NCBI GenBank assembly: GCA_965214865.1
Contig: CBDCCN010000004.1
Coordinates: 2,801,300 to 2,865,299, forward strand
Direction of reading: 5' to 3'
DNA from: Vicinamibacterales bacterium
GTDB taxonomy: Bacteria; Acidobacteriota; Vicinamibacteria; Vicinamibacterales; UBA8438
DNA length: 64,000 nucleotides
The notes below the pieces were generated by a model. The model did not search any database and was not told where the DNA came from. It saw nothing but the letters and a program-made list of their open reading frames with translations. The position numbers were made by a program, and so were the translations under genes. This document shows, in pieces, positions 21,069 to 59,578 of this stretch (positions within the stretch are counted from its first letter, which is position 1; each line of letters opens with the position of its first letter).

Positions 21069-21642
21069 ATGACACCGCATGCACGAATCAAGTTGCTCGC
21101 AATGGTGGTGGTCGCAGCCCTCGCCACAGCGCCCGGCGCTGCGCAGGAGCCGGACACGAACGTCGGAGGGGACGACCTGCGCGGCGTGGTCCGCAGCCCG
21201 GGCGGTCCGGAGGCGGGCGTCTGGGTCATCGCCGAGACCGACGACCTCGACACGCTGTTCCGGAAGAACGGGCCGGAGGCGACCGGCCGGCATTGCCCGG
21301 AGGGCTGGACCGGTACCCCACGCCCGGGCCGCAGATGAAGGCGTGACCGACCCGGGCAGCGCCGACTACCACTACAATTGGGTCGATCAGTTCGACACGC
21401 TCGGGTTGGGGACCAACGTGCCGAGCGCGCCCGGGTCCGACTCGCTGCCTGGCGTTGCTCCGGGAGACCGGCGAGTGGGTGGTGCTGCGGGTGCCGTATC
21501 CGCTCGGCTTCGCGCGCGGCCTGGACGGGAGGATCGACGATCCCGGCCCCGGCCGCCACCGGGGCCGGCGGTGGGATTGAAGCCGGACCTCGCTGCTTCA
21601 CATGCCGGTGTGGGCAGCCTCGTGAACGGGAGGACGAGATGA
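21069..21642 (+). pseudogene. remnant of a large secreted protein gene (N-terminal and C-terminal pieces only, three frames)
   Basis: Signal peptide + MTPHARIKLLAMVVVAALATAPGAAQ...LRGVVRSPGGPEAGVWVIAETDDLDTLFRK then loses sense. Later pieces sit in other frames: DPGSADYHYNWVDQFDTLGLGTNVP, and RETGEWVVLRVPYPLGFARGLDGRIDDPG (stop 21578-21580). The motifs resemble 700+ aa carboxypeptidase-regulatory-like proteins of Acidobacteria (from memory only). Confidence 0.45.
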
Positions 21643-22649
21643 GCTGTCGAATGACGACCTTCGCGGGTGCGATCCTGGGGGCGGCCGCGCTCCTGCCTCT
21701 GGCGGCGGCGCCCGCCGGCGCCCAGACCGAGCCGCCGCGGACCGCCTGGGGCGCGCCCGACCTCGGAGGTGTCTGGGACTTCCGGAGCATCACCCGGATG
21801 GAGCGGCCGGAAGCGCTCGCCGACAGGGAGTTCCTGACCGCGGAGGAAGTGGCCGACCTGGAGCAGCGTGCGCTCGACCGCCTGAACGACTTCCTGGATC
21901 TGCCGGCCCAGCGCACGGAGGTGGGCGGCAACGTCGACCGGCGGCCGGACGGCGGGAACGGCTCCTACAACCACACCTGGCTCGATCAGGGGCTGGAGGC
22001 GGTCGACACGGGCCGCACGTCGCTGATCATCGACCCGCCGAACGGACGGTATCCGCCGCTCACGCCGGAGGGGCAGCGCCGCGTGGAGGCGCGCCGGGAG
22101 CACCGGCGCAACCAGCCGGCCGACTCGTGGCTGGACTTCAGCACCTACGACCGTTGCCTCCTGGGCTTCAACGCCGGGCCGCCGATGACCCCGAGCGCCT
22201 ACAACAACAACATGCAGTTGTTCCAGACGCCGGACCACGTCGCCATCGTGACCGAGATGGTGAACACCGCGCGCATCGTCCCGCTCGACGGCCGTTCCCC
22301 GCTCCCCGCCGACATGCTCCAGTGGTCGGGCGAGTCGCGCGGGCACTGGGAGGGCGACACCCTGGTCATCGAGACGACGAACTTCGATGCCCGGCGGCAG
22401 TGGCGTTCCACGACCGGCAGCATGCACCTGACCGAGCGCCTGACCCGCGTCGACGCCGAGACCCTGCTCTACCAGGCCGCCGTCGACGACCCGGAAACCT
22501 GGGAGCGCCCGTGGACGTTCGAGGTGCCGATGAAGGCGCTCGACGGCGAGAAGTGGGAATACGCCTGCCACGAAGGGCACCACTCGATGCCCCTCATGCT
22601 GGGCGGCGCGCGCGCCCTGGAGGCGAGAGAGGCCGCTGGCGGCCGGTAG
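21639..22649 (+). CDS. secreted protein of the unnamed PDLQG/WEGDTLV family, copy P1
   Basis: The ATG at 21639 follows GGGAGGA. Signal peptide is MSCRMTTFAGAILGAAALLPLAAAPAGAQ. Motifs: PRTAWGAPDLGGVW, TSLIIDPPNGRYPPLTPEG, DRCLL, YNNNMQLFQTPDHVAIV, ARIVPLDGRSPLP, WSGESRGHWEGDTLVIETTNF, ERLTR, WEYACHEGH. Confidence 0.85.
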   Translation: MSCRMTTFAGAILGAAALLPLAAAPAGAQTEPPRTAWGAPDLGGVWDFRSITRMERPEALADREFLTAEEVADLEQRALDRLNDFLDLPAQRTEVGGNVDRRPDGGNGSYNHTWLDQGLEAVDTGRTSLIIDPPNGRYPPLTPEGQRRVEARREHRRNQPADSWLDFSTYDRCLLGFNAGPPMTPSAYNNNMQLFQTPDHVAIVTEMVNTARIVPLDGRSPLPADMLQWSGESRGHWEGDTLVIETTNFDARRQWRSTTGSMHLTERLTRVDAETLLYQAAVDDPETWERPWTFEVPMKALDGEKWEYACHEGHHSMPLMLGGARALEAREAAGGR

Positions 22650-22689
22650 CCGCGGCGCCCGCGGGCCGGGTCCCACCGCGAGCCGACCG

Positions 22690-22715
22690 GAGACGGATTC
22701 CCTGCAGTCCGTCTC
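22690..22715. terminator. hairpin between convergent genes
   Basis: GAGACGGA (22690-22697) and TCCGTCTC (22708-22715) form an 8-bp perfect stem with a 10-nt loop. It lies between the stops at 22649 and 22738. Confidence 0.3.
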
Positions 22716-22737
22716 GGAGGGCGCGCGGTGTTCAACG

Positions 22738-28918: not shown

Positions 28919-29808
28919 ATGACAGTGACGCGCTTGCAGATCGGGGCGCTGGAGGAGTCGGTCACGGTCACCCGGGAGTCGCCGCTGGTCGACCTGACCT
29001 CGACGCAGGTCGGCGGCAACGTCTCCCTGGAGGAACTGAAGGACCTGCCGTCGTCGAGCCGCAACTTCACCAGCTTCATCGCCCTGCTGCCCGGCGTGCA
29101 GTTGACGCCGTCGAGCAGCCCCAGCTCGTCCGGCGTCCGCATCAACGGCCAGGACCAGACCGGCATCGTGTTCATGCTGGACGGCGGGGCCGACAACGAC
29201 GACCTGCGCGGCGGGCAGTCGCAGGCGAAACCGGCCCTCGAGGCGGTCGCCGAGTTCCAGGTCGTCACCAACCAGATGGACGCGGAGTACGAGTCCGCCA
29301 CCTCCGGCGTCGTCAACGCCATCAGCAAGACGGGGACCAACGAGTTCCACGGCAGCGGGTTCGGCTTCTACACGAGCGGGGGCCTGACCGCGGAGGACTT
29401 CTTCGTCAGGCAGCAGGACCTCGAGAAGCCCGGTACATGAGCGGCACGCCGTTCACGATCCACGACAGCGACTTCGACCCGAACCGCAACGGCCTGTCCC
29501 CGGACCCGCTGCCGCCCGGCGCCTACAGCGGCACGGGGCAGAACGCGATCACGGTGGAGAACGAAGGCGGGCTCAGAGGCGCCTACGGGCCCGACTACTT
29601 CCAGCTCGACATGCGGATCGGCTACCGCTATCGGGGAGGGGGAGAGCAGACGGTCGACGTCTTCGGCGAGCTCTTCAACCTGACCAACCGGGTCAACTTC
29701 GTCAACCCGTCGGGTGACCGGCGGTCCGGCAACTTCCTCGTCCCGACCCAGCTTCTGGCCGGCGGTTATCCGCGCCAGTTCCAGGTCGGCATCCGGTACG
29801 GCTTCTGA
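28919..29808 (+). pseudogene. TonB-dependent receptor remnant (plug region + last beta-strands only)
   Basis: Plug-like N-terminal part: ESVTVTRESPLVDLTSTQVGGNV..LKDLPSSSRNF..LLPGV...RINGQD...MLDGGADND...AVAEFQVVTNQMDAEYESATSGVVNAISKTGTNEFHGSGFGFY. It stops at 29438-29440. The other frame continues to a typical TBDR C-terminus (VDVFGELFNLTNRVNFVNP...YPRQFQVGIRYGF). About 300 aa remain, compared with ~1000 aa in intact genes. Confidence 0.65.
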
Positions 29809-30565: not shown

Positions 30566-31594
30566 TCAGATCAGGTCAGGCAGCCGGGTGGGGGCGCCGT
30601 CACCGGGCGCCGGCAGTCCGGGCAGTTCGAGCTGCCTGTCGCGGGCCGCGGACGTCGACCGATCGTCGTCCCGGTGCCGCTCGAACGCGCCGCCGGCGAT
30701 CTCGGCGACCCGCGCGACGAGGGCGGGCGGCTCGACGGCGCGGGCTGCGCCGGCGAAGCCCACGATCCAGCGGGCGATCTCGTCGAGGTGCGAGAGGGTG
30801 ACGCGGTACTCCAGTGCTCCGTTCTCCAGTGGTTTCGTGCGTTCCTCGGGATGGTGGGTTCCTGCCGTGACCAGCGGCGCGAGCGACGCATCGAAGTGGA
30901 CGACGATCGCGTGCAGGGTCCGGCCCTTGTACACCCCCCAGGTTTGCTGAAGGAAGGTCTCGAGATCGAAGGCCGGCCGTTCGAAGGCGCCCTCGAGCGG
31001 CTTCGCTTCGGCGATCCGATCGAGACGAAAGGTGCGGACTTCGCGGTGCAGGTGACATTGCCCGACCAGATACCAGGCGTTTTCCCGATGGAAGACCTCG
31101 TACGGATCGATGCCGCGCCACATCCGGCTGTGGCTCCACAAGGAGCGGTAGAGCATGGACACCGGGGTGTGTTCGCGAATCGAACGGTTCAGCAACGCCG
31201 TCAGTTCCTTCGCAATGGCGCCGGAGCGTTCCGGTCCGGCCAGGGTGAGTGCGCCGGGCGTTTCCTCCAACTGCCGGGTGGCGGAGTCCAGCTTCCGGTC
31301 CAACGCCGCGGTCACATCCGATGCGATGCGCAGGGCCGGTTGGTTCAGCAGCAGCTTCAGCGTCGCGCGTTCGGTGGCGGTCAGGGCCAACTGCGGCATC
31401 GTTGCGCCCTCGACCAGCCGGTAGCCGTGTTCGTCGCGCGTGATCGGGATGCTCTCCAGCCGCTGAAGGTCCTGCAGGTCGCGGTACACGGTGCGTTCCG
31501 AAACGCCGAAGTGTTCGGCGATCTCGGCCGGTCGCCGGGAGCGGCGCCCGCCCAGAAGCTGGAGGATCTCGATGAGACGAATCGGACGGTCCAC
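30566..31594 (-). CDS. YafY-like transcriptional regulator (wHTH + WYL + C-terminal extension)
   Basis: GTG at 31594 with GAGGGGAG upstream. HTH region is RLIEILQLLGGRRSRRPAEIAEHFGVSERTVYRDLQDL. WYL region is IDPYEVFHRENAWYLVGQCHLHREVRTFRLDRI. Confidence 0.85.
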   Translation of the reverse strand: MDRPIRLIEILQLLGGRRSRRPAEIAEHFGVSERTVYRDLQDLQRLESIPITRDEHGYRLVEGATMPQLALTATERATLKLLLNQPALRIASDVTAALDRKLDSATRQLEETPGALTLAGPERSGAIAKELTALLNRSIREHTPVSMLYRSLWSHSRMWRGIDPYEVFHRENAWYLVGQCHLHREVRTFRLDRIAEAKPLEGAFERPAFDLETFLQQTWGVYKGRTLHAIVVHFDASLAPLVTAGTHHPEERTKPLENGALEYRVTLSHLDEIARWIVGFAGAARAVEPPALVARVAEIAGGAFERHRDDDRSTSAARDRQLELPGLPAPGDGAPTRLPDLI

Positions 31595-31854: not shown

Positions 31855-32853
31855 ATGCGCAGGTCGGTATTGCTGGCAGGTTTTCTGATGGCGGGATGCG
31901 GCGGCGTGCCGGAGCCGGAGCCGGAGCCGGCCCCGGCGCCCGAGCCGGGCGCGGGGACGATAGAACGTCTGGATCCGTCCTTCGACCGGCTGGTGCCGGC
32001 CGACGCCGTGATCGAGCATCTGGCCGGGGGGTTCGGCTTCACCGAGGGACCCGTCTGGGTCGAGGACGCCGGCGGATTCCTGCTGTTCAGCGACATCCCC
32101 GGCAACCGCATCGTCCGGTGGGCGCCGGACGGGACGGTCAGCGACTTTCTCGCTCCGGTCTACGAGGGCGAGCACGAGGAGGGCCGCCTGGTCGGCTCGA
32201 ACGGCATCACCGTGGACCCGGACGGCAACGTCGTCTTCACCGAGCATTTCAACGGCCGGATTTCGCGGATGGCGGCCGACGGGACGCGCAGCGTGGTGGT
32301 CGACAGCTACGAAGGCGGGCGGCTGAACAGCCCGAACGATCTCGACTACCACTCCGACGGCTCGCTCTACTTCACCGACCCGCCGTACGGGCTGCCGAGT
32401 CCGGAGGCGCGGGAGCAGGACGTCAACGGCATCTATCGGCTGAGCCCGGACGGCGAGCTTGCGCGCCTGGCCGAGCAGACCGGTCCCAACGGGATCGCCT
32501 TCTCGCCGGACGAGTCGCGCCTGTACGTGGCCGACAGCAGCACGCAGCAGTGGTTCGTGTATCCCGTGGCGGAGGACGGCGCGCTCGGCGAGGGCGAGCT
32601 GCTGTTCGACGCCGGCGGCTCCGAAGAGAGCGGGGCGGCCGACGGTCTGAAGGTCGACGAGCTGGGCAACCTCTGGGCGACCGGCCCCGGCGGCGTGTGG
32701 GTCATCCGGCCGGACGGTCTGCATCTGGGCACCATCAAGCCGAACGAGGTTCCGGCCAACGTGGCATGGGGCGCCGGCGACCGGCGCACCCTCTACATGA
32801 CGGCCCGCACCGGGCTGTATCGGATTCGCGTGAACGTGGCGGGAGACCGGTAG
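31855..32853 (+). CDS. SMP-30/gluconolactonase/LRE-family lipoprotein
   Basis: The ATG at 31855 follows GGAGG. Lipobox is FLMAGCGG. Motifs: FTEGPVW, LLFSDIPGNRIVRW, SNGITVDPDGNVVFTEH, LNSPNDLDYHSDGSLYFTDPPYG, PNGIAFSPDESRLYVADS, ADGLKVDELGNLW. Confidence 0.85.
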   Translation: MRRSVLLAGFLMAGCGGVPEPEPEPAPAPEPGAGTIERLDPSFDRLVPADAVIEHLAGGFGFTEGPVWVEDAGGFLLFSDIPGNRIVRWAPDGTVSDFLAPVYEGEHEEGRLVGSNGITVDPDGNVVFTEHFNGRISRMAADGTRSVVVDSYEGGRLNSPNDLDYHSDGSLYFTDPPYGLPSPEAREQDVNGIYRLSPDGELARLAEQTGPNGIAFSPDESRLYVADSSTQQWFVYPVAEDGALGEGELLFDAGGSEESGAADGLKVDELGNLWATGPGGVWVIRPDGLHLGTIKPNEVPANVAWGAGDRRTLYMTARTGLYRIRVNVAGDR

Positions 32854-32899
32854 TTCGGTGAAAACCGGTCTCGGTGCGGGTCAAGGAAGGAGATCGACC

Positions 32900-33142
32900 A
32901 TGCGCCATTCAACTGTCGCGGCGTTGATCACGGCGGTTGCGGTCGTACTGGCGGCGGCGCCGGCCGCGGCCCAGGATGCGGACGCCGGCTGGACGCCCGC
33001 GCGGACGCCCTGGGGACATCCGGACCTGCAGGGGATCTGGGACCAGACCACCGGGACGCCGCCGGAACGGGCGGCCGAAGGGAACTGCGGCATGGAGGGC
33101 ATCCTCGCCGGCCATCGCGCCGAGGAGCAGGCGCTGCGATAG
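32900..33142 (+). pseudogene. in-frame internally deleted mini-copy (P8) of the PDLQG/WEGDTLV family
   Basis: AAGGAGA RBS followed by MRHSTVAALITAVAVVLAAAPAAAQDADAGWTPARTPWGHPDLQGIWDQTTGTPPER. This is joined directly to the family C-terminus (EGNCGMEGILAGHRAEEQALR; compare P6 ACHEGNLGMEGILAGGRAEDAEEAR). It is 80 aa, against 324-358 aa for the intact full-length copies. The ORF is open, so it may still be translated. Confidence 0.6.
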
Positions 33143-33150: not shown

Positions 33151-33486
33151 ATGCACGAGACGTACTATCACGCGGAGGATCTCGAACGCTTCGCGGAAAT
33201 CGGCAGGAACCGCCCCGAGCTGGCGGAAAAGTTTTTCGCATGGTACGAGGCGGTGTTCGAGGACGGGGCGCTGTCGGCGCGGGAGAAGTCGCTGATCGCC
33301 CTGGCCGTCGCGCACGCGGTGCAGTGTCCCTACTGCATAGACGCCTACAGCACCGACGCGCTGGAGAAGGGCGCCGACCTGGACCAGATGACCGAGGCGG
33401 TGCACGTGGCGTCGGCCATCCGCGGCGGCGCTTCGCTCGTCCACGGTGTGCAGATGCGCAACCACGCGAACCGGGTCGGCATGTGA
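33151..33486 (+). CDS. arsenosugar-biosynthesis-associated peroxidase-like protein (CMD/AhpD-like)
   Basis: 111 aa. The block EKSLIALAVAHAVQCPYCIDAYSTDALEKGADLDQMTEAVHVASAIRGGASLVHGVQMRN matches my memory of this conserved ArsS partner family. It starts 8 nt after P8. Confidence 0.8.
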   Translation: MHETYYHAEDLERFAEIGRNRPELAEKFFAWYEAVFEDGALSAREKSLIALAVAHAVQCPYCIDAYSTDALEKGADLDQMTEAVHVASAIRGGASLVHGVQMRNHANRVGM

Positions 33487-33586
33487 CCCGCGCGTGCGTG
33501 GCGCGATCGGCGACGATACTTTCGGGATGCCCTGACAGCGGCCAGGCTGACGAATCCGGGTCGGTGCGCGTTCCGGGGTAGAACAG

Positions 33587-34636
33587 ATGGGCAGCACGCT
33601 CCCGTCGCTCGTTTCGCGGCAGCTCCCGCTGGCTTCGGCGCGCGAGCAGTTGGCGACGCTGCACCGCCTCCCTCTGGCGCGTGAGTTCGCGGAGGCGCTA
33701 GACGAGACCGGTCTGTATCCCCTGCGCCCGACCGGCATCGAGATCCTGCAGATCAACGTCGGCAAGCTCTGCAACCAGACCTGCGTGCACTGCCACGTCG
33801 ATGCGGGTCCGGATCGGCGGGAGATCATGACCCGCGAGACGATGGCGCAGTGCGTCGACGCCCTGAAGCGGACCGCGATAGCGACCGTCGACGTCACGGG
33901 CGGCGCCCCGGAGCTCAACCCGAACTTTCGCTGGCTCGTCGAGCGGTGCGCCGCGCTCGACCGCCACGTGATCGATCGCTGCAACCTCACCGTGCTCGGT
34001 CTGCCGTCGCAGGCGGACCTCGCGGAGTTCCTCGCCGAGCACCAGGTCGAGGTGGTCTGCTCGCTGCCGCACTACCGCCGGCTCAACACCGACAGGCAGC
34101 GGGGCGACGGCGTATTCGACAGGTCGATTGCAGGTCTTCGAAAGTTGAACGCGGTCGGCTACGGCGACGAATCGTCGGGGCTGCGCCTCGTGCTGGTGAC
34201 GAACCCGGTCGGGGCGTACCTGCCGGCGGGGCAGGCCTCACTGGAGCGGGAGTGGAAGTGCGAGCTCGACCGCCTGTACGGCATCCGGTTCAACGCGCTC
34301 CACACCATCACCAACATGCCGATCAGCCGCTTTCTGGAGTGGCTGGTCGACTCGTCCAACCTGGAACGCTACATGGAGCGGCTGGTTGCGAGCTACAACC
34401 CGGCCGCCGCGGGCGGGGTGATGTGCCGCAACACGCTGTCCGTCGGGTGGGACGGCGTGTTGTACGACTGCGACTTCAACCAGATGCTGGATCTGCCGGT
34501 GGAGCCGGGCGCCCCGCGCCACATCGCCGACTTCGACCTCGCCGCCCTCGAAGCGCGGTCGATCGTCGTCGACCGCCACTGCTTCGGCTGCACCGCCGGC
34601 GCCGGATCGAGCTGCTCGGGCGCCACCGTCGTGTAA
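33587..34636 (+). CDS. arsS: ArsS-type radical SAM / Cys-rich domain protein (arsenosugar biosynthesis family)
   Basis: Radical-SAM CxxxCxxC is in LQINVGKLCNQTCVHCHVDAGPDRRE. The middle block is TNMPISRFLEWL. The C-terminal Cys-rich tail is VMCRNTLSVGWDGVLYDCDFNQML...DRHCFGCTAGAGSSCSGA. There is no in-frame TGA, so this is the Cys form. Confidence 0.85.
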   Translation: MGSTLPSLVSRQLPLASAREQLATLHRLPLAREFAEALDETGLYPLRPTGIEILQINVGKLCNQTCVHCHVDAGPDRREIMTRETMAQCVDALKRTAIATVDVTGGAPELNPNFRWLVERCAALDRHVIDRCNLTVLGLPSQADLAEFLAEHQVEVVCSLPHYRRLNTDRQRGDGVFDRSIAGLRKLNAVGYGDESSGLRLVLVTNPVGAYLPAGQASLEREWKCELDRLYGIRFNALHTITNMPISRFLEWLVDSSNLERYMERLVASYNPAAAGGVMCRNTLSVGWDGVLYDCDFNQMLDLPVEPGAPRHIADFDLAALEARSIVVDRHCFGCTAGAGSSCSGATVV

Positions 34637-38032: not shown

Positions 38033-38238
38033 CGTAGCGTGTTCAATGGCTTCAAGACTCCCGACGCGGCCCCGGGAGAGAGCTGCGCCTACCGGAAACC
38101 GCGGGTCCGGCCGGCCTTTATCCAGGGCGACTGAAGCGCGGGGGCTCGACGCGCCGGCAGCAAGCGCGGAACGCGGGCACGGTGCGCCATGAACGTCTCC
38201 CTGGAGTCGATAGCGCGTAATGCGGGCCGCGGACGGAA

Positions 38239-38276
38239 GAACGCCCGCGAGGGCCGGAGCGGCCCCGCGGGCGTTC
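38239..38276 (-). terminator. strong GC hairpin downstream of the P4-P3-DUF6152 operon
   Basis: GAACGCCCGCG-a-GGGCC-ggagc-GGCCC-CGCGGGCGTTC, 16 bp paired in total. It lies 16 nt beyond the stop at 38292. On the minus strand it is followed by TTCCGTCC. Confidence 0.5.
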
Positions 38277-38291
38277 AACGTGAGGAGAGAC

Positions 38292-40536: not shown

Positions 40537-40568
40537 GACGCGATTCCTCCGCGGTCCGATCGACCGCT

Positions 40569-41393: not shown

Positions 41394-41676
41394 GTGCGGA
41401 GCCACTCATTCACAAAGGGACGCGGTGCGCTGCGAAGCGCGCGAACACGGTGTGCCGGCGCGATGGCGGGCGTGACCTGATTCGAACCGGCGATCTCTGC
41501 GCTGACAACGCAGCGTCTTGACCACTTGACCACACGCCCGGAACTCGTCGCTGTACCCCCCTCGTTCGGCCGCGCGGCAGCCGTCGGGGCCATGGTCCGA
41601 TAATGATACCAGCGACGGCGTCCGACGGCGAAGGTGTGCCGGCGCCGGTTTGCTCGCGGCGTTCGGGACCGCGGTT

Positions 41677-44303: not shown

Positions 44304-44335
44304 ACGAGTCCAAGTAGTAGAGGAAGGGAAGTGTG

Positions 44336-49848: not shown

Positions 49849-50823
49849 TTACCGGGCTTCTTCCGCGTCCTCGGCCCGGCCGCCCGCGAGAATGCCCTCC
49901 ATCCCGAGGTTGCCCTCGTGGCAGGCGTACTCGTACATCACCTCGGACGAGAGGCTGAACGGGTAGGCGACCGTCCAGGACCGCGTGTACATCTGCGGAT
50001 CGTGGACCTCCACCTCGTACTCGAGCGTCCCGGGGCCGACGCGGGTGAACCGCTCGACGAGCATCATGTCCTCACCGGAGCCGTCGCGCGAGTTGAAGGC
50101 CGACCAGGGTTGCAGCGCGCTCACCCGGTGATCGAGATTCGTGGTCACGACCACGAGCGTGTCGCCCTCCCAGTGGCCGCGCGAGTCGCCGTTCCACTGG
50201 CCGATGTCGTCCGCCAGCGGCGGGCGTCCGTCGAGCGGCACCACGCGCACCTCGTGCACCTGCTCCAGCAGCATCACGACGTGGTCCGGCGTCTGGAAGA
50301 CCTGCATGTTGTTGTTGTAGGAGCGCGGGAACATGGCGTTGGGCATCCCGCCGCGGGTCACGCAGCGCTCCCAGATGTGCCGGTCCTCCCACGTGTCATC
50401 GCCGCGCGGCTGGCTGATGCGGGCCTTCTGTCCCTCCGGGGTCAGCGGCGGGAAGCGGCCGTTCGGCGGATCGACCAGCATCGACGTGCGGTTCGTCCGG
50501 GCGCCGCGCTCCATCCAGAAGTTGTTGTAGGCGCCCACGTTGCCCCCGGCGGCGGTGCGCCGGGCGTCGGCGAGCAGGAGCTGCTGGTTGCGCTCCTCGG
50601 TCGCGCGCCGAATCTGCGCGACCTCCTCGTCGCTCAGGGTCGCGCGGCCCTGGTGCTCGTCCGGCCGCTCCATCGGCGTGGCCCCGGACGAGCTCCAGAT
50701 GCCCTGCAGGTCCGGGTGGCCCCACGGGGTGCGGTAATCGTCCGCCGACTGGGCGGCCGCCATGCCCGGTACAACCAGCACCAGAACGGGAATCGCGAGA
50801 AGATGGAACCGTCGAGCACTCAT
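49849..50823 (-). CDS. PDLQG/WEGDTLV family, copy P6
   Basis: ATG at 50823 with AAGGAGG upstream. N-terminus is MSARRFHLLAIPVLVLVVPGMAAAQ. Motifs: YRTPWGHPDLQGIW, TSMLVDPPNGRFPPLTPEG, ERCV, YNNNMQVFQTPDHVVML, VRVVPLDGRPPL, WNGDSRGHWEGDTLVVVTTNL, ERFTR, YEYACHEGN. Confidence 0.9.
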   Translation of the reverse strand: MSARRFHLLAIPVLVLVVPGMAAAQSADDYRTPWGHPDLQGIWSSSGATPMERPDEHQGRATLSDEEVAQIRRATEERNQQLLLADARRTAAGGNVGAYNNFWMERGARTNRTSMLVDPPNGRFPPLTPEGQKARISQPRGDDTWEDRHIWERCVTRGGMPNAMFPRSYNNNMQVFQTPDHVVMLLEQVHEVRVVPLDGRPPLADDIGQWNGDSRGHWEGDTLVVVTTNLDHRVSALQPWSAFNSRDGSGEDMMLVERFTRVGPGTLEYEVEVHDPQMYTRSWTVAYPFSLSSEVMYEYACHEGNLGMEGILAGGRAEDAEEAR

Positions 50824-51110: not shown

Positions 51111-52118
51111 ATGAAGACATGGTCGACCGGCATGCTCGTCGTCGGCGCCCTGGCGGTGGCTCTCGCCCTGGCGGGGCGGCCTCCGGCGTCGGCCCGGGAA
51201 TCGTCCGCGCCCCCGCTCGTGAGCCAGGAGCAGTTCGACCGCTGGCTCGTCGAGCTCTCCAACTGGGGCCGCTGGGGACCGGACGACGAGCTGGGCGCGT
51301 TCAATCTCATCACGCCGGCCCGGCGCGCCGCGGCGGCGGCGCTGGTCACCGAGGGCTTCACGGTGTCGCTGGCGTCGAACGCCCAGAACTACGAGAGCGC
51401 CGACGTGCCCTGCCCGGTCGAGTGGGAGATGGTGCGCGCCACGCGCCGGGGGGCCAGCGACCGGATCGCCTACCCGTGCATCCACGGTCCCGGCACCACG
51501 CACCTGGATGCGTTCGCCCACGTGTTCTTCGACGGCAAGATGTGGAACGGGTACGACGTCGACGGGCTGGTGACGATGGGCGGCGGCGCCGCCAAGAACT
51601 CCATCATGACCATGAAGAACGGCATCGTCACGCGCGGCGTCCTCTACGACATCCCGCGCCTGAAAGGCGTGCCCTGGTTGGAGCCGGGAACGCGCATCAC
51701 GGTCGAGGACCTGGAGGCGTGGGAGGAGATGGCCGGCGTGAAGGCCGGTCCCGGCGATGCCTTCCTCATTCGCTGGGGGCGCTGGGCCCGGCAGGACGCA
51801 CTCGGCCCGTTCGACACCGGCCTCGAGGCGGCCGGCCTCGACAACAACGTGATCCCGTGGCTGAAGGAGCGTGACGTGGCGGTGGCGGGTTGGGAGACGC
51901 CCGGCTATGCGCCGCAGCCGGAAGGTGACCTCCCGCGCACCGCGCTGCACAACTTCGCGCTGACGATTCTCGGGATCCAGGTGCTCGACCGCGCGGACTT
52001 CCAGGCCCTGGCCAACGCCGCGGCGGAACGCAACCGCTGGGAGTTCATGGTGACCATCGCGCCGCTGCCGATTCCGAACGGCACCGGCTCGCCGGTCAAC
52101 CCCATCGCCATGTTCTGA
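51111..52118 (+). CDS. cyclase-family protein with signal peptide, paralogue 3
   Basis: GAGGAGGGG RBS. Signal peptide is MKTWSTGMLVVGALAVALALAG. Contains SNWGRWGPDDELGAFNLITPARRAAAAALVTEG, IHGPGTTHLDAFAHVF, GDAFLIRWGRW and a C-terminal MVTIAPLPIPNGTGSPVNPIAMF. Confidence 0.9.
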   Translation: MKTWSTGMLVVGALAVALALAGRPPASARESSAPPLVSQEQFDRWLVELSNWGRWGPDDELGAFNLITPARRAAAAALVTEGFTVSLASNAQNYESADVPCPVEWEMVRATRRGASDRIAYPCIHGPGTTHLDAFAHVFFDGKMWNGYDVDGLVTMGGGAAKNSIMTMKNGIVTRGVLYDIPRLKGVPWLEPGTRITVEDLEAWEEMAGVKAGPGDAFLIRWGRWARQDALGPFDTGLEAAGLDNNVIPWLKERDVAVAGWETPGYAPQPEGDLPRTALHNFALTILGIQVLDRADFQALANAAAERNRWEFMVTIAPLPIPNGTGSPVNPIAMF

Positions 52119-52430: not shown

Positions 52431-53813
52431 TCAGTTCGTGGCGCTCGCGACCCCCGACAGCTCCTGGATCTGCTCGCCGGTGCTGTCGCCGAACTGCTCC
52501 GTCGGCACCCCCAGCGAGTTCAGCAGCGTCAGGTGCAGGTTGGTCAGCCGCTGGGTTCCCTCCGCGTACTGCACGTGCCGGCCGCCCTGGACGCGGCCCG
52601 CGCCGCCGCCCGCCAGCAGGATCGGCAGGTTGCGGATATCGTGCCGGTTGCCTTCGCTGATGGCGCTGCCGTACAGGATGACGACGTTGTCCAAGAGCGA
52701 GCCGTCGCCGTCCGGCGTCTCCGCGAGCCGGTCCAGGTAGTAGTTGAACAGCGACGTGTGGTACGCGTTGATCTTCCGCAGGGCGGCGATCTTCTGCTCG
52801 TCCCCCCCGTGGTGCGAGATGGGGTGGTGCGAGTCGGAGACGCCGATCTGCGGATAGGTCGCGCCGCTCTGCTCGCGGCCGACCTGGAACGTGATGATGC
52901 GGGTGGTGTCGGTTTGCAGCGCGAGCGTCTGCATGTCGAACATCAGCCGCGCGTGCTCGTCGTAGCTGACCGGGATGCCGGCCGGCGAATCCACCAGCGG
53001 CAGCTCGCGCCCGCGCGTCTCCGCGTTCTGGATCCGCCGCTCGATCTCGCGCACGGAATCGACGTACTCGCCGAGCTTCAGGCGGTCGCGGCGCCCGAGG
53101 TCGCCCTCCAGGGAATGCACCTTGTCGAGCACCGAGTCGATGATGCTGCCCTGCCGGCGCAGGCGGGACTTCCGCACCGCCGGGTCGGTGCTCTCGACGC
53201 TGCCGAAGAGCCGCTCGAAGACCACGCGCGGGTTCGCCTCGATCGGCAGGGGGGTCGTGGGGCTGCTCCAGGCCAGCCGGTTCTGGTAGGCGCAACTGAA
53301 GCCGACGTCGCAGGTGCCGACCCCGTTGACCGTGTCGGTGCCTTCGAGGCCGAGCTCCAGCGACGGCAGCGGCGTCTCCTGCCCGATGGTCCGGGCCAGG
53401 ATCTGGTCCATCGACGTGCCGAGCTGCAGGCTGGAGCTGCTGGTCGTGCGCAAGGGCTCCACCCCGGTCATGAACGCTCCGGCCGGCTTGGCGTGGGCGC
53501 CCGAGTTGCCGGTGCGCGACATGGCCCCGGTGTTGTCGAGGCCGCTGAGCACCAGCAGGTGATTCCGGTGCGCCTCGAGCGGTTTCAGCGTGGGAGTGAA
53601 CTCGAAGCCGGTTCCCTCCGTCGCCGGGGTCCATCCCGCCATGATGATGCCGTTGGGCACGTAGACGGTGCCGAAACGGGCGATCGGCTTCGCCGCGGTC
53701 TTCGACAGGGCGGTGAGCGCCGGCACCATCCCGTCGAGGAGCGGCAACGCCAGCGTGGCGCCGATGCCGCGCAGCACGGTCCGGCGAGGAACGGCCTTCT
53801 TCACGATGATCAT
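52431..53813 (-). CDS. DUF1552-family protein with TAT-type signal (pair C)
   Basis: The ATG at 53813 overlaps the upstream stop as ATGA (53810-53813). N-terminus is MIIVKKAVPRRTVLRGIGATLALPLLDGM. HHPISHH is present. Colinear with 12429..13775. Confidence 0.9.
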   Translation of the reverse strand: MIIVKKAVPRRTVLRGIGATLALPLLDGMVPALTALSKTAAKPIARFGTVYVPNGIIMAGWTPATEGTGFEFTPTLKPLEAHRNHLLVLSGLDNTGAMSRTGNSGAHAKPAGAFMTGVEPLRTTSSSSLQLGTSMDQILARTIGQETPLPSLELGLEGTDTVNGVGTCDVGFSCAYQNRLAWSSPTTPLPIEANPRVVFERLFGSVESTDPAVRKSRLRRQGSIIDSVLDKVHSLEGDLGRRDRLKLGEYVDSVREIERRIQNAETRGRELPLVDSPAGIPVSYDEHARLMFDMQTLALQTDTTRIITFQVGREQSGATYPQIGVSDSHHPISHHGGDEQKIAALRKINAYHTSLFNYYLDRLAETPDGDGSLLDNVVILYGSAISEGNRHDIRNLPILLAGGGAGRVQGGRHVQYAEGTQRLTNLHLTLLNSLGVPTEQFGDSTGEQIQELSGVASATN

Positions 53814-56293
53814 GACTCTGACCTCCGCATGAGGAACGGTGTGCTCTTGACCACGGACGATACGAGGGCCGACCAGGTGAGCTCGCCGGGAGCCGTCTGC
53901 CGGCTGATCTGCCGGATCACCGGCATGTCGTAGTGCTCGAGGGTGCGTCCGAGGGCGTACGTCAGCAGTTTCTCGGTGACAGTCTCGACGAACTGGTCCT
54001 CCCGCTCCAGGATCACGTTCCGCAGCCCGGCCAGTCCGTGCAGCTCGGTGCCGTCGATCAGGGTGCCCGACGCGTCGATCGGGATCCCGGTGTCGAACGG
54101 CGTGCCGCCGCCGCTGGTGGCGCGGAAGCGGCCGATCGCGTCGAACTCCTCGAGCGCGAATCCGAGGGGGTCGATGGTGTTGTGGCAACTCGCGCAGATC
54201 GCGTTGGTGCGGTGCGTCTCGAGCCGCTCGCGGACCGAGCGGGCCACGCCGCCTTCGTTCACGCTCGGCAGGCTCGGCACGTCGGGCGGCGCCGGCGACG
54301 GAGGCGTGCCGAGGACGTTTTCCAGCAGCCAGACCCCGCGCACGACGGGCGACGTGCGGTTGGCGTACGACGTGATGGTGAGCAGGCTGGCGTGCCCGAG
54401 GATCCCGCCGCGGGTGTCGTCGGGATAGTTCACCCGCCGGAAGTGCACACCGTGCACGTCCGGGATGCCGTAGTGGCGCGCCAGACGCTCGTTGACGAAG
54501 GTGTAGTCGGCCCGCAGGGCGTTGACCACCGGGCGGTCCTCCCGCAGCTCGTTTTCCAGGAAGAGCTGGGTCTCCCGCCACATCGCTTCGCGCAGGTTCT
54601 CGTCGAACGCGGTATAGGTGGCCGTGTCCGGCGTTGCGTTGCGCAGCTTGCGGAGCTGCAGCCACTGGCCCGCGAAGTTCTCGACCAGCGCCGTCGAGCG
54701 GCGATCGGCCAGCATGCGCTCGATCTGGCGGTCGAGCACCGCCGGCTCGCTCAGTCGGCCCGCGGCCGCGAGGTCCAGCAGCTCGTCGTCGGGGATGCTG
54801 CTCCACAGGAAGAAGGACAGGCGCGAGGCCAGCTCCAGATCGCCGATGCGGTACGGCGCGCCGGGAGGGACGTCCGGCGGATCGGTCTCGATGCGGAAGA
54901 GGAACTCCGGATCCACCAGAAGCCGCTCCACCGCAGCCTGGATGCCGGCGTCGAAGGCGCCCTCGTTGCGGCCGTCGCGATAGAAGGGGAGCAGCGTCTC
55001 GACGTCCGCGTCGGTGGTCGGCCGGCGATAGGCCTGACGCGCCAGACGCGAGAGGATCTCCGTCGCGCATGCTTCCTCACCGGCCGCGCCGCCGGTCGGC
55101 TCGCACACGAACAGGCGATCCCGGCCCGGCAGCCCGGCCGCGCCGCTCGCGTTGTAGGGGCCGATGATCTGCACCTCGGAGACGCCCGGGTAGCCTTCCT
55201 GGAACTCGTTCTGCCCGTACGAGTACGTCGAGCGGTCGACCGGCAGCGGCAGAATCCCCTCCGGCAGCGCCGGGCGCCGGTGGAAGGAGAGGCCGACCAC
55301 ATGCCGGCCGGCGGTGACCGGCGTGCGGACCTCCAGCCCCTCGTCGGCGTGCAGGGCGTACAGCTCCCATTCCGGGAAGGACCGCGAGTCGTAGATGTCT
55401 TCGAACTTGCCGGCGTACCCCATCGGCGGACGCTGGCCCCGCTCCCAGTCGCGGCCCACCGTGAAGCCGCCCACGCGCTCGCCGTCCACCCGCACGTCGA
55501 GCTCGTGCGGCCGGCCGAGACCGCGCACGTAGCCGTACTCCTGCTTGCGCAGGCTGACGCGGATGATGTACTCGCCGTCGACCGGGAAGTGGTGCTCGAC
55601 CGCGACGCCGCCGCGCGACCCGAACGGCAGCTCGTCGCTGACGGGGCCGTCCTGGTCCAGCGCCCCGTGCACCGGATAGACTTCTGCCACCGCACGCAGG
55701 CTCGTGTCGCCCACGACGAGCTGGCTGATGCGGCGCGCCGCGGCCAGATACCGCTCGATCAGGGTCGGCGACACGGACAGCACGTCCGCGATGTTGTCGA
55801 AGCCTTCCTGCTCGTCGTCGGCCGGCAGCAGGGCGTTGACGTCGATTTCGAGGCCGAAAATGTCGCGGATGGCGTTGGCGTACTCCGCCCGGTTGAGGCG
55901 GTGGACGGCGGGCCGTCCGGGATCGGGGTTCTCGAGTCCCGCCCGGTCGAGCCCGGTCTCCAGCCACTCGATGAACTCGTGGGTCGCGGCGGCGGCGGGT
56001 CGCGGCCGGCCGGCCGGCGGCATCGCGTTGGCTCGCAGCCGGCGGATCACGTGCTCCCAGGTGGCTGCGTTCGTCTCCAGGTGCGCGACGTCCGGCGTGT
56101 CGAGGGCCAGCCCCGCGGTCAGCGTGCGCCGGTTGTGGCAGGCGACGCAGTACCGGTCGAGCAGGGCCCTTGCTTCCGCGGTGCCGGTTCCGGCTTCGTC
56201 TTGCGGGGCGGGTCGGGGCTCCGCGTGCAGGTCGAGCTGCGCCGCGCCGATCAGGGCCGCCAGCCCCACGCCTGCGAGTGTCCAGCGTGCCAT
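53810..56293 (-). CDS. PSCyt/PSD-type di-heme cytochrome-like protein (DUF1592/DUF1588 family), pair C
   Basis: ATG at 56293 with GGAGG upstream (MARWTLAGVGLAALIGAAQ). Heme motifs are CVACH (LDRYCVACHNRR) and NAICASCHNTIDPLGFALEEFDAIGRFR. The 1482-aa track ORF reads through the ankyrin gene region in another sense and was trimmed. Confidence 0.9.
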   Translation of the reverse strand: MARWTLAGVGLAALIGAAQLDLHAEPRPAPQDEAGTGTAEARALLDRYCVACHNRRTLTAGLALDTPDVAHLETNAATWEHVIRRLRANAMPPAGRPRPAAAATHEFIEWLETGLDRAGLENPDPGRPAVHRLNRAEYANAIRDIFGLEIDVNALLPADDEQEGFDNIADVLSVSPTLIERYLAAARRISQLVVGDTSLRAVAEVYPVHGALDQDGPVSDELPFGSRGGVAVEHHFPVDGEYIIRVSLRKQEYGYVRGLGRPHELDVRVDGERVGGFTVGRDWERGQRPPMGYAGKFEDIYDSRSFPEWELYALHADEGLEVRTPVTAGRHVVGLSFHRRPALPEGILPLPVDRSTYSYGQNEFQEGYPGVSEVQIIGPYNASGAAGLPGRDRLFVCEPTGGAAGEEACATEILSRLARQAYRRPTTDADVETLLPFYRDGRNEGAFDAGIQAAVERLLVDPEFLFRIETDPPDVPPGAPYRIGDLELASRLSFFLWSSIPDDELLDLAAAGRLSEPAVLDRQIERMLADRRSTALVENFAGQWLQLRKLRNATPDTATYTAFDENLREAMWRETQLFLENELREDRPVVNALRADYTFVNERLARHYGIPDVHGVHFRRVNYPDDTRGGILGHASLLTITSYANRTSPVVRGVWLLENVLGTPPSPAPPDVPSLPSVNEGGVARSVRERLETHRTNAICASCHNTIDPLGFALEEFDAIGRFRATSGGGTPFDTGIPIDASGTLIDGTELHGLAGLRNVILEREDQFVETVTEKLLTYALGRTLEHYDMPVIRQISRQTAPGELTWSALVSSVVKSTPFLMRRSES

Positions 56294-56364: not shown

Positions 56365-57810
56365 TCAGTCCCGGTTCGCCATCCGCAGGAGATGGCGCTG
56401 CAGCAGATCGCGCGGTGTCGTTCCGTCCTCGCTCTTCCTGTCCAGATCGGCTCCGAGGCCGACCAGGAAGTCGACGACGCTCGTGAATCCGTACCGCGCG
56501 GCGGCATGCAGGGCGGTCTCGCCCGCCCGGATCGTCCCGTGCACGAGCTCGCCGGCCCCCGCGTCGACGGCGGCCTTGACGGTCTCCAGCACGCGTTCCT
56601 CGTCGCTCCACTGGGCGGTGACCAGTTCCGGCGCGATCAGCCGGCTGCGGCGCGTGGTGCTGCGGCTCAGGCCGAGTCCCACCGCCGCCATCAGCGCCGT
56701 CGTGCCGTCCTCGGTGCGCACGAGCGGGTCCGCCCCGGCCGCGGCGAGCATCCGGGCGATCTCCGGCTCCAGGTACTTTATTGCCAGCAGGAACGGCGTG
56801 GCGCCCTTTTCCCTGAGCGTGAAGACGAACTCGTACGTCCAGCGCGGCACCGGCGTGCTGCGTGTGAGGCGGGCGTTCGGGTCCGCCCCCCGGGCCAGCA
56901 GCATTCTCACCAGGGGCCGGTCGGCGCGCAGGACCGCCGCGTGCAGCGCGTTGTAACCGGCCCCGTTCGCGTCGGGATCGGCGCCGCGGGCGAGCAGGAA
57001 TTCCGCGAGTCGCGGATGGCCGCTCATGGTCGCCAGCACCAGCGCGCTGTTGCCGTCCGCGCCGGTCTCGTTGACGTCCGCCCCCGCGTTCAGCAGGCGG
57101 CGGGCGGACGCGACGTCGCCGTGGCGCGCGGCGAACAGCAGCGGCGTGAAGCCGCCGGCGTCGAAGTGGGTGGCGCCGGCCGGGCTGGTGGTGCTGCGCA
57201 GGCCGGTGCCGCGGAACTGTCGCCGGGTGATGGTGCGGGCGTCGACCGCCGCGCCGTGCTCCAGCAGCACCCGCGTGACGTCGGGCTGGAGGTGGGCCGC
57301 GGCCCACATCAGGGCGGTCTGCCCGTTCTCCGGCTCGGTCGCGTCGACGTCGGCGCCGTGCTCGATCAGCGCCTCCACCGCCGCCGGGTCGCCCGTCGCC
57401 GTGCAGCGCATCAGGACCGTCTCGCCCGCGAGAAGCCCGATGTCGGCGTCCGCGCCGGCGGCCAGAAGCTGCCGTACGACCTCGGTGTTGCGGCTGGCGC
57501 AGGCGACCCACAGCGGCGTGGCGCCCAGCTCGTTCGCCGCGTCGACGTGCGCCCCGGCCTCGATCAGCCGGTTCACCGTTCCCAGGTCGTTCCAGTGCGC
57601 CGCCCAGTGCAGCGCCGTCGCGCCGTCGCCCTGCGGGGTGTTGACGTCGATGTCCCGGTCCAGCAGGATGCCGACCGTGGCCCAGTCGCGGTTCTTCGCC
57701 GCGTCGACGATCCGGCGGTCGGAACTGGCGGCGGCCGGGCCTGCCGCCCACAGGCTGAACAGCACTCCGGCCGCGAACCGCGTACACGGATGCCGCAAGG
57801 TCACAAGCAT
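56365..57810 (-). CDS. secreted ankyrin-repeat protein (paralogue of 13876..15369)
   Basis: N-terminus is MLVTLRHPCTRFAAGVLFSLWAAGPAAA. The ankyrin repeats are colinear with the B copy (ATALHWAAHWNDLGTVNRLIEAGAHVD, GQTALMWAAAHLQ...). It ends 71 nt upstream of the pair C heme protein. Confidence 0.9.
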   Translation of the reverse strand: MLVTLRHPCTRFAAGVLFSLWAAGPAAASSDRRIVDAAKNRDWATVGILLDRDIDVNTPQGDGATALHWAAHWNDLGTVNRLIEAGAHVDAANELGATPLWVACASRNTEVVRQLLAAGADADIGLLAGETVLMRCTATGDPAAVEALIEHGADVDATEPENGQTALMWAAAHLQPDVTRVLLEHGAAVDARTITRRQFRGTGLRSTTSPAGATHFDAGGFTPLLFAARHGDVASARRLLNAGADVNETGADGNSALVLATMSGHPRLAEFLLARGADPDANGAGYNALHAAVLRADRPLVRMLLARGADPNARLTRSTPVPRWTYEFVFTLREKGATPFLLAIKYLEPEIARMLAAAGADPLVRTEDGTTALMAAVGLGLSRSTTRRSRLIAPELVTAQWSDEERVLETVKAAVDAGAGELVHGTIRAGETALHAAARYGFTSVVDFLVGLGADLDRKSEDGTTPRDLLQRHLLRMANRD

Positions 57811-58175
57811 CCGTCATGATAGCGCCGTGCGGATCTCGATCCAACCATTTTCGCGCCGTCAATCGGACATTTCTCACCCGCGAGAGGAGCGCTTCATGGC
57901 ATCCGGACTCAATCGCCGTCGGCTCGTGACGTTTGTGGGCTCGACGCACGGGGACGTTACGCCGGCGGGTCCCTGTACGCGGGTGACACGAGCCGCTACG
58001 CCGTGTGCACGGAGAACGGCGCCGAGCTGCTGCCCCTCGAGCCGCTGCTCGACGGGCCCCCGCGGGACTGAACGCCGGCGCGCAGAAGGCCACGCGGGCC
58101 GAGTGCGGGCGGCGGCGCTGCCGAAAGACGGGAGCTCGTCGGTCGCCGCGTCGCGTACCTCGATCGCGAGCGGCT

Positions 58176-58376
58176 TCAGGAAGGGTCGCTGCCGGAAGAC
58201 GGGATCTTGCGGCCCATGACGACCGCGACCACCAGGTGCAGCGTTCCATCGAGTGCATCGACCCGGCCGGTCAGCCGGTCCACCTTGCTGTTGACCACCA
58301 GCACGCCGACCGCGCTGACGAGCGAGAGCAGAGCCGTGAGGACATCGAGCACCGTAGCGTCCATACGTTCCATCAT
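58176..58376 (-). CDS. hypothetical small membrane protein
   Basis: MMERMDATVLDVLTALLSLVSAVGVLVVNSKVDRLTGRVDALDGTLHLVVAVVMGRK.. has G/C-ending codons in most positions. There is no SD and the local region has lower GC. Confidence 0.3.
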   Translation of the reverse strand: MMERMDATVLDVLTALLSLVSAVGVLVVNSKVDRLTGRVDALDGTLHLVVAVVMGRKIPSSGSDPS

Positions 58377-58519
58377 AAGACACAAGACGATTCAAGAGTC
58401 GGAGAACGGTCCGGGCGGCGCGGCGTTGCCTTCGGCGGCGATGCTGCCAGCCGGGGCCAGGCGGACGTCGGCCGACCGCGATCGCCCGACGGATCGCGGT
58501 CGGACCGTTGTGCGAGCGG

Positions 58520-59578
58520 CTACGGACCTTCGCTGGCTTCGGCCTCCTCGGCCCGCGACCCGCTCAACATGTTGAACATCCCGTAGTTGCCCTCGTGGCA
58601 CGCGAACTCGAACATCGGCTGGTGCTGGCGCGCATAGGGCAGGGCGCCCGACCAGGGCCTGGTCCAGGTCTCCGGATCGTCGATGGTGAACGTGTAGTCG
58701 AGCGTGTCGGGCCCGGTGCGCGTGAAGCGCTCGGTCACCGTCGCCGACTCGCTCAGCTTGCCGCGCGACAGCGCGTGCTCGGGGCGGCTCCAGCGCCGAA
58801 TGAAGGGCTCGCGCAGATTGGTGGTTTCGACCACCAGGGTGTCACCCTCCCAGCGGCCGCGCGAGCTGCCGGCGAACTGGCGGATGCCGTCCGGCAGGTG
58901 GGGCCGATCGTCGAGATAGACGACCCGCAGATCGTGAATGTGCTCCTGCAGGATCGCGACGTGGTCGGCTGTCTGGAAGAAGTGGAAGTTGTTGTTGTAG
59001 CCGGTCGGGATCGACGGGATCCCACGGTACCAGAGGCAGCGCTCGCTCAGGCCCATGTCCTCCGGACCGTCGGCGGGAACGACGCCGTTCTGCGCGTCGG
59101 CCAGGCGGCGCGACTCGGGCGACGTTATCCGGGCGAGCGCCTCCGGGGTCAGCGGGGGCAACCGGCCGTTCTCCGGATCGGTGATGATCGACGTGCGGTT
59201 GGTGCCGACCACCGACGTGTTCTGTTCCGTCCAGTAGCTGTTGTACGCGCCGACGTTGCCGCCCACCGGGAGCGGCTCGGTGCGCACCTCGCTCGGCGCG
59301 TTCTCGCGGTCCACGCGGGCCTGCGCCTGCCGCTCGAGCGCCGCCGCTTCCTCCGGGCTGAGAAATGCCTGCTCCGCGAGGTTCTCCGGGCGCTCGAGCG
59401 GCGTGATGGTGCCGTTGTTCCAGATCGCCTGGATGTCCGGATGGCCCCACGGCGTGCGCGGCGCCGTCCAGTCCGCGTCCGGCGCCTGGACCTGCGCCTC
59501 GACCGCCGCCGGGGCCAGGGCAAGCAGCGCAAGCACGGCCGCCCGCACTGCCGGCAACGTGAAACATCGTTGGCTCAT
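58520..59578 (-). CDS. PDLQG/WEGDTLV family, copy P7
   Basis: ATG at 59578 with GAGGAGG upstream. N-terminus is MSQRCFTLPAVRAAVLALLALAPAAVEAQ. Motifs: PRTPWGHPDIQAIW, TSIITDPENGRLPPLTPEA, ERCL, YNNNFHFFQTADHVAILQE, LRVVYLDDRPHLP, FAGSSRGRWEGDTLVVETTNL, ERFTR, FEFACHEGN. Confidence 0.9.
   Translation of the reverse strand: MSQRCFTLPAVRAAVLALLALAPAAVEAQVQAPDADWTAPRTPWGHPDIQAIWNNGTITPLERPENLAEQAFLSPEEAAALERQAQARVDRENAPSEVRTEPLPVGGNVGAYNSYWTEQNTSVVGTNRTSIITDPENGRLPPLTPEALARITSPESRRLADAQNGVVPADGPEDMGLSERCLWYRGIPSIPTGYNNNFHFFQTADHVAILQEHIHDLRVVYLDDRPHLPDGIRQFAGSSRGRWEGDTLVVETTNLREPFIRRWSRPEHALSRGKLSESATVTERFTRTGPDTLDYTFTIDDPETWTRPWSGALPYARQHQPMFEFACHEGNYGMFNMLSGSRAEEAEASEGP

Follow-up and report, generated by a model that had tools for sequence, protein, structure and literature searches.

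The family and its operon with DUF6152

The 64-kb stretch of Vicinamibacterales DNA analysed here (64,000 nucleotides, G+C ~70%; hereafter the window) contains seven genes and one remnant of a family of exported proteins; five of the genes encode solo long copies, and the other two form, together with the gene of a DUF6152 protein, a three-gene operon that is undescribed so far and represents the main new result of this work. The operon lies on the minus strand in the order 40569-41393 → 38773-40536 → 38292-38726. Its first gene encodes a short form of the family (274 amino acids (aa), with the subfamily C-terminal motif LEFKCVE(F/Y)), the second a long form of 587 aa with a predicted signal peptide, in which two VOC/Glyoxalase modules (~39721-40536; PF00903, E=2.2e-17 in two stretches) precede the family domain (38773-39720), and the third a DUF6152 protein of 144 aa (PF19649, E=3.5e-33, 114 bits against a cut-off of 27). 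An earlier note, made from the letters of the window, had proposed that 38773-40536 is a fusion, and the succession of signal peptide, two PF00903 modules and family domain bears this out. The same note had described the product of 40569-41393 as a short divergent form lacking ACHEGN; the motif is indeed lacking, being replaced by KCVEYS, and ~75 aa of the N-terminal insert are missing, but the protein is not a degenerate one, the best 120 of its at least 8,000 homologues being 69–89% identical to it, which makes it the most conserved member. Judged from these identities, the short copy belongs to a separate, strongly conserved subfamily and is not a decayed paralogue.

The operon recurs in Acidobacteriota and Gammaproteobacteria, and in the Sphingomonadales DUF6152 is paired with a family gene. 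Contigs of Tara marine, Bryobacterales and JGI origin, with unrelated flanks, always show the short form together with a long form, either VOC-fused or not, and with DUF6152, and the same pattern is found in every short-form locus of the first genome scan (L046, L068, L070, L074 and L077); in the Tara Oceans contigs DUF6152 occupies the second place and is followed by two VOC-fused long forms. The reverse test, carried out on 80 DUF6152 loci taken with 4 kb on either side, gave a family gene in 77 of them, the short form in 72, the long form in 70 and both forms in 65, while in 65 of the 80 a family gene ends <400 bp upstream of DUF6152 on the same strand. Counted by gene order, there are 37 cases of short–long–DUF6152 (19 with and 18 without an insert of VOC size), 18 of short–DUF6152 and eight of long–short–DUF6152. 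Plasmids of Sphingobium and Novosphingobium carry one or two tandem pairs in which a distant family gene is immediately followed by DUF6152. Between Vicinamibacterales and Bryobacterales the identity amounts to 71–76% for the short form, 65–72% for the long domain, 71–77% for DUF6152 and 55–57% for VOC. DUF6152 and VOC are obligate operon partners of the family genes; the annotations of the neighbourhood given in the earlier note were confirmed by Pfam (Cyclase twice, COesterase, VOC, DUF6152 and SGL), but not the listing of these two as ordinary neighbours.

In 12 DUF6152 sequences from Acidobacteriota and Sphingomonadales the invariant elements are the Ala at position –1 of the signal peptide, whose cleavage site was placed by the AxA rule, a His-His pair, an Asp eight residues on, an NPH motif, a Trp and a Glu. 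A conserved His located right after the signal-peptide cleavage site has been used to discover secreted proteins that bind Ni, Cu and Zn (PMC12537917); since the invariant His-His at the mature N-terminus of DUF6152 is the same feature, this protein probably binds a metal. The PDB yielded no sequence relative of DUF6152.

Some further observations concern the operon and its surroundings. A distant third type of family protein, with the C-terminal motif E[FY]IC[NE]ENNR, is encoded in one locus (L064:2927-5717) having the order long, DUF6152, third type, DUF6152, and the pairing with DUF6152 therefore reaches beyond the short and long types. In two sphingomonad plasmids a pair of DUF6644 genes, encoding predicted membrane proteins, lies on the strand opposite to that of the family and DUF6152 genes, directly beside them in L090 (9391-10409, minus strand) and ~1.7 kb upstream in L091 (4017-4992, minus strand); no counterpart of DUF6644 was seen in the acidobacterial loci. 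In the window, a tRNA-Asp (GTC) gene (41464-41539, minus strand), placed ~70 nt upstream of the short-form gene, heads the operon. An open reading frame (ORF) of 878 codons (38773-41409, minus strand) is an artefact: over its first ~290 codons it reads the short-form gene in another frame, rich in Arg and Pro, which could lead gene callers astray in DNA of 70% G+C; the true start of the VOC-fused gene is at 40536, with GGAGGA 12–14 nt upstream.

The five solo long forms are c1 (21639-22649, plus strand, 336 aa), which carries the C-terminal motif YACHEGH and has a score of 486 with the hidden Markov model (HMM), c2 (36329-37321, plus strand, 330 aa), c5 (43227-44303, plus strand, 358 aa), c6 (49849-50823, minus strand, 324 aa) and c7 (58520-59578, minus strand, 352 aa). 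Translation of the seven genes and a MAFFT alignment place the motifs listed in the earlier note in homologous columns and in colinear order in all seven copies, 30 columns being invariant; furthermore, an HMM made from the seven copies, when run against the six-frame translation of the whole window, returns exactly these copies and the remnant (32834-33139) and no other locus, so that the count of seven genes and one remnant sharing a motif set stands. GGAG or GAGG precedes the remnant and every copy except the short one (six of seven) at a distance of 9–14 nt, as expected from the strong ribosome-binding sites attributed to most of them. Signal peptides with n-region, hydrophobic core and AxA|Q were recognised by eye on the copies and on most of their neighbours, in agreement with the view that both are exported. 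Tat export was considered and rejected as a family trait, since no more than three of the seven copies have RR-like n-regions and Pfam gives TAT_signal an E-value of 0.18.

The identity of the copies to copy 1 at the protein level is 26–47%, and at the DNA level the copies resemble one another only in short conserved patches (65–90% identity over 25–470 nt), two facts that identify the copies as old paralogues and rule out recent duplication or gene conversion. Indeed, the long forms are 34–46% identical to one another, compared with 60–93% for their orthologues in other metagenome-assembled genomes (MAGs), as befits the old, retained paralogues that the earlier note had taken them for.

The remnant (32900-33142, plus strand, 80 aa) keeps residues ~1–57 and the last ~20 of a full-length protein, an internal deletion of ~700 bp having joined the signal peptide and RTPWGHPDLQGIW in frame to the C-terminal EGNxGMEGILAGHRAEE. 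In a related Vicinamibacterales MAG (L257), which is ~85% nucleotide-identical to the window, the syntenic position (1550-2554) is occupied by a full-length gene of 334 aa whose termini match those of the remnant and of which ~700 bp are missing in the window; in a second relative (L258) the family gene is entirely absent at this position. Since the same gene is a remnant in the window, complete in L257 and absent in L258, gene loss affects the array. Multi-copy clustering is typical of the family, at least two copies occurring within 21 kb in 48 of 80 family loci, some of which have seven in tandem. Directly downstream of the remnant (33151-34636, plus strand) lie a carboxymuconolactone-decarboxylase-family gene and a radical SAM/DUF3641 gene, the latter conserved across many phyla; their synteny is kept in L257 and L258.

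Size, conserved residues and predicted fold of the family

A profile search covering 1.84 billion representative proteins gave 28,376 clusters at 50% identity with E<=1e-3 and 15,708 with E<=1e-10, and word-seeded searches gave at least 8,000 matches for either of two queries, a long copy and the short one; among the matches listed, every source name is "hypothetical protein" and there is no precomputed Pfam domain. The family is thus a very large uncurated set of bacterial proteins which, their export being judged by eye from the signal peptides, appear to be Sec-exported, i.e., periplasmic. Matches in genomes come mainly from Vicinamibacterales, one MAG of which (CAXXVU020000002.1) is syntenic to the window with ~89% nucleotide identity, but also from Bryobacterales, Thermoanaerobaculia, Holophagales, Terriglobia, Pseudomonadales/Porticoccaceae and other Gammaproteobacteria; the distant members on Sphingobium and Novosphingobium plasmids bear the PGAP name "hypothetical".

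The family was described as unnamed in the earlier note, and so it proved in the resources searched. With the window copies as queries, Pfam-A and NCBIfam gave no match for the family domain at E<=1 except sub-threshold chance matches on c5 and on the remnant, and Pfam gave none over the family domain of three distant members from other loci. The family domain was likewise unmatched by Pfam in 140 diverse representatives (each, like the 150 used for the conservation analysis, <50% identical to the others), four of which matched in fused extra domains only. The PDB, searched with single sequences and with three successively deeper profiles, gave no match for the family domain, and literature searches for DUF6152, for DUF6644, for calycin with PQQ and for histidine-brace with TonB did not return a description of the family.

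The motifs conserved over the 150 representatives are PDLQGxW, G-R-x-P-P-L-T-P-E, G-x-S-R-G-x-W-x-G-D-T-L-V-V, E-R-F-T-R, as well as a Y, a D-P, a W and a C-terminal R. Within DLQGxW the G is kept in 97% and the W in 87% of the sequences; the RC pair is kept in 99–100%, E200 and R206 in 99% each and E260 of ERFTR in 100%, a Q on the first barrel strand being likewise conserved; within E-Y-A-C-H-E-G-N the values are 99% for E301, 98% for C304, 93% for H305, 97% for E306 and 96% for N308. When the short and distant types are added, the universal core is reduced to GxW, the two Cys, an R, G-x-x-x-G-x-W-x-G, E-R and E-x-T-x-x-D, and E-[YF]-x-C-x-E is present in most members.

A long copy and the short copy were modelled with AlphaFold2 (pLDDT 72.5 and 66.3, respectively), and the two models display the same order of strands and helices: the N-terminal GxW strand, predicted with pLDDT ~90 in both, is followed by a helical insert, after which come eight antiparallel strands and, at the C-terminus, a helix. 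The insert, whose length is ~75 aa in the short form as against ~150 aa in the long ones, accounts for the main difference in length and is the most variable region between paralogues. A GxW strand followed by helices and then by a barrel is the topology of the iLBP/FABP proteins, and when both models are compared with the PDB by Foldseek, the barrels of FABP, CRBP, CRABP and tardigrade SAHS rank first and constitute the best and only consistent matches. With these calycin proteins the family shares the N-terminal G-x-W strand, the helical insert after the first strand and, as predicted, the antiparallel up-and-down barrel; it differs from them in sequence (8–16% identity), in the size of the insert (75–150 aa as opposed to a helix-turn-helix of ~25 aa), in being exported, in having two invariant Cys, an extra C-terminal helix and E-[YF]-x-C-x-E, and in being bacterial, multi-copy and encoded in an operon. 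The models thus point weakly to a variant of the calycin type, and we suggest a calycin/FABP-like fold class in this weak sense, claiming no family membership. The small-molecule role suggested in the earlier note is made plausible by such a barrel.

One of the two invariant Cys is located just before the barrel and the other just after it. In a Sec-exported protein the simplest reading of two invariant Cys, for which the earlier note had speculated about a metal, heme or disulfide site, is a disulfide, which would clamp the barrel at its two ends. The family domain is devoid of CxxCH, which led us to discard a heme c site; ACHEGN has a single C-H with no Cys at –3, the short form has C-V at this place and hence no His, and CxxCH is confined to the separate cytochrome c domain fused to some homologues. 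As to Lipocalin_5 (PF13924), it resembles the family in being exported, bacterial, a small beta-barrel and endowed with GxW; a two-domain Lipocalin_5 protein (17276-18298) is encoded in the PQQ/cytochrome c operon beside c1, and one family representative is fused to Lipocalin_5. A relationship between the two was nevertheless discarded, no HMM match being obtained and the hhalign comparison of the family profile with the Lipocalin_5 protein of the window giving a probability of 2%.

Fusions, redox neighbours and possible functions

Class I cytochrome c domains containing CxxCH (PF13442, E ~5e-13) are fused to the N-terminus of short forms in three loci (L008:10707-12215, L018:3-950 and L077:4804-6138), these proteins having the C-terminal motif LDYDCVD instead of LEFKCVEF, and long forms bear VOC modules both in the window and in many of the operons; Lipocalin_5, a prenyltransferase/squalene-hopene-cyclase repeat and a methyltransferase are each found in a single fusion among the representatives. 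Like the VOC enzymes of the glyoxalase/extradiol dioxygenase type, 38773-40536 has two PF00903 modules with H...H...E at the usual positions of the metal ligands, but unlike them it is exported and fused to a barrel, and its scores are far below every NCBIfam equivalog cut-off; the best PDB match of its VOC half is an L-DOPA extradiol dioxygenase, with an E-value of 2e-4 only.

The earlier note had laid emphasis on esterases as neighbours, yet the recurrent neighbour across genomes turned out to be a beta-propeller of the pyrroloquinoline quinone (PQQ) type. Among the 137 ORFs immediately adjacent to family genes in 80 family loci, PQQ_2 (16) and PQQ (14) are the commonest, with a best E-value of 2e-187, followed by cytochrome c, DUF6152 and NHL (four each) and Cyclase (three). 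The family loci contain 66 PQQ-like ORFs in 1.49 Mb (4.4 per 100 kb) and the control loci three in 0.60 Mb (0.5 per 100 kb), the latter loci being the surroundings of the phosphofructokinase gene in Acidobacteria, which corresponds to a ~9-fold enrichment.

What could be the function of such a system? We consider it possible, though short of probable, that the short and long forms join DUF6152 in a periplasmic complex, which binds and transforms small organic molecules with the help of a metal centre and of cytochrome c and PQQ-dehydrogenase partners, the solo long copies being specialised for different ligands. The short and long barrels would pair and bind a small organic ligand in the periplasm; DUF6152, together with the VOC domain where this is present, would supply the metal chemistry; and c-type cytochromes and PQQ dehydrogenases would serve as partners in electron exchange. 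As for the five solo long copies, we picture them as paralogues that are specialised for their ligands, differ mainly in the lid and might handle substrates or products of the adjoining periplasmic hydrolases and dehydrogenases. That small molecules are bound is suggested by the combination of a barrel and a variable lid; the many invariant polar residues and the fusions to catalytic and electron-transfer domains speak for chemistry over simple carriage, and the obligate pairing with a protein that starts with His-His for a metal; the disulfide, the heterodimer, the binding of metal and ligand and the redox coupling are what we infer from these features.

Several data weigh against this proposal. 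The near invariance of the polar residues across paralogues argues against a simple diversification of ligand specificity inside the barrel, it is only the adjacency of their genes that suggests a heterodimer of short and long forms, and the neighbours of the solo long copies are too diverse to reveal a single pathway. Furthermore, the Foldseek matches are weak (E 7e-4 to 4e-3, target-normalised TM-score 0.45–0.57, root-mean-square deviation ~5 Å), and in both models the pLDDT drops below 50 exactly in the segments bearing the two Cys and CHEGN, so that the disulfide and the geometry of the pocket are matters of inference. Finally, the PQQ control is small (three ORFs in 0.6 Mb) and some of its loci contain family genes.

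A more specific version of the complex, namely a three-component periplasmic redox metalloenzyme in which the two barrels hold the substrate while the His-His protein, in a manner akin to a histidine brace, carries a metal serving catalysis or electron transfer, the reductant coming from c-type cytochromes and PQQ dehydrogenases and the solo long paralogues acting as substrate-specific adaptors, seems to us unlikely. DUF6152 shares with known N-terminal-His metalloproteins (CopC, YcnI and the LPMO histidine brace; DUF4198, DUF6702 and the anglerases of PMC12537917) the His placed directly after the AxA cleavage site, further invariant His (in NPH), Asp and Glu residues, a small size and, by assumption, a beta-rich fold. 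On the other hand, its N-terminus is His-His, it has no sequence match to a solved structure and its metal binding is only predicted; its gene, moreover, stands beside those of the barrel family, for which the known N-terminal-His systems have no counterpart.

Rather doubtful, in our opinion, is the idea that the family members are non-catalytic carriers or chaperones shuttling hydrophobic or amphipathic nutrients or reaction products through the periplasm between TonB-dependent receptors of the outer membrane and enzymes, with paralogues specialised by their lids and DUF6152 as an unrelated, co-regulated partner. The FABP-like topology with its variable helical lid, the many exported hydrolases of the window and the fusion of one representative to Lipocalin_5 would all fit such a role, but the conservation of ~15 polar residues in >93% of highly diverged members is unusual for carriers of different ligands, and the fusions to cytochrome c, VOC and methyltransferase point to chemistry and not to transport; TonB-dependent receptors do adjoin family and DUF6152 genes in a Sphingobium plasmid and in one Bryobacterales contig, yet they are outside the top 25 neighbour families. 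Should the cargo be not an organic substrate but a metal (Cu, Ca, lanthanide or Fe) or PQQ itself, to be acquired or inserted for PQQ dehydrogenases and VOC domains encoded nearby, this would explain why PQQ propellers are enriched 9-fold and why mature DUF6152 begins with His-His, and also the presence in the sphingomonad loci of the paired membrane protein DUF6644, which is reminiscent of pairs of the CopC/CopD type. Precedents exist both in the small periplasmic metal-cargo proteins that occur beside quinoprotein systems (bioRxiv 10.64898/2026.07.10.737718) and in the secreted metal binders with an N-terminal His (PMC12537917). This trafficking role is decidedly unlikely, however, as the operon often has no PQQ gene beside it, clusters of acidic or His residues such as characterise metal carriers are missing from the family domain, and seven to eight paralogues per locus are hard to explain for a chaperone; nor can DUF6152 be equated with the lanthanide cargo protein of bioRxiv 10.64898/2026.07.10.737718, which has no conserved domain and is hence different. 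Very improbable is, lastly, an envelope structural or immunity array, either of exported paralogues diversifying against secreted toxins or of LolA-like carriers of lipoproteins or lipids: tandem arrays of up to seven copies and the gain and loss of genes at the remnant locus would be in keeping with it, but the motifs are strongly conserved instead of diversifying, the orthologues are stable across orders, and the Pfam annotation of the window and the neighbour survey disclosed no toxin, T6SS or Rhs genes nearby, their lack of toxin genes having led us to reject a toxin–immunity array.

Whatever its function, the family is abundant in Acidobacteriota MAGs from soil, groundwater, marine and probably sponge-associated sources, and has neither a curated model nor a structure nor a literature of its own, so that its definition represents a new domain for annotation pipelines. 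The DUF6152 partner, the probable metal site, the fusions to cytochrome c and VOC and the link to PQQ dehydrogenases make it a concrete experimental target, for which genetics should be feasible since cultured Novosphingobium and Sphingobium carry the pair of family gene and DUF6152. A periplasmic redox enzyme or a cofactor-handling system, if this is what the family constitutes, would account for some of the many genes annotated as "hypothetical exported protein" in Acidobacteriota and for part of their organic-matter metabolism, and the three-component metalloenzyme, if real, would amount to a modular periplasmic oxidation of dissolved organic matter in Acidobacteriota, sponge symbionts and sphingomonads.

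Other genes of the window

The solo copies are found in different surroundings. Copy c1 is divergent from a minus-strand operon (17276-20969) in which Pfam recognises a PQQ_2 propeller, a cupin, a cytochrome c and two Lipocalin_5 domains, c2 from a gene for a molybdopterin oxidoreductase of the sulfite-oxidase type (34766-35932) and c6 from a Cyclase-family gene (51111-52118); a carboxylesterase gene (44333-45949) starts 30 nt after c5, and c7 is followed, on its own strand, by an ankyrin gene and a DUF1592/DUF1552 pair.

Pairs of DUF1592-family and DUF1552 genes (PSD/PSCyt, HXXSHH) occur three times in the window (6004-9487, minus strand; 9928-13775, plus strand; 52431-56269, minus strand), and two of them are flanked by ankyrin-repeat genes of ~480 aa (13876-15369, plus strand; 56365-57810, minus strand). 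In a related MAG (L092-L094) a trio of DUF1592, DUF1552 and ankyrin genes adjoins a probable family gene (327 aa, no Pfam match). Another periplasmic quinoprotein of the same island is encoded by 3417-5858 (minus strand), whose product of 813 aa consists of a glucose/sorbosone dehydrogenase (GSDH) propeller of the PQQ type and a CMD domain. Two plus-strand ORFs (28925-29440 and 29437-29808) match only the Plug with the first strands, and the last 70 residues, respectively, of the barrel of a TonB-dependent receptor, and together look like a receptor pseudogene with a large internal deletion. Interspersed among the genes of exported enzymes are those of a putative endonuclease of the Uma2 family (37391-38278, minus strand) and of a WYL/WCX transcriptional regulator (30566-31594, minus strand).

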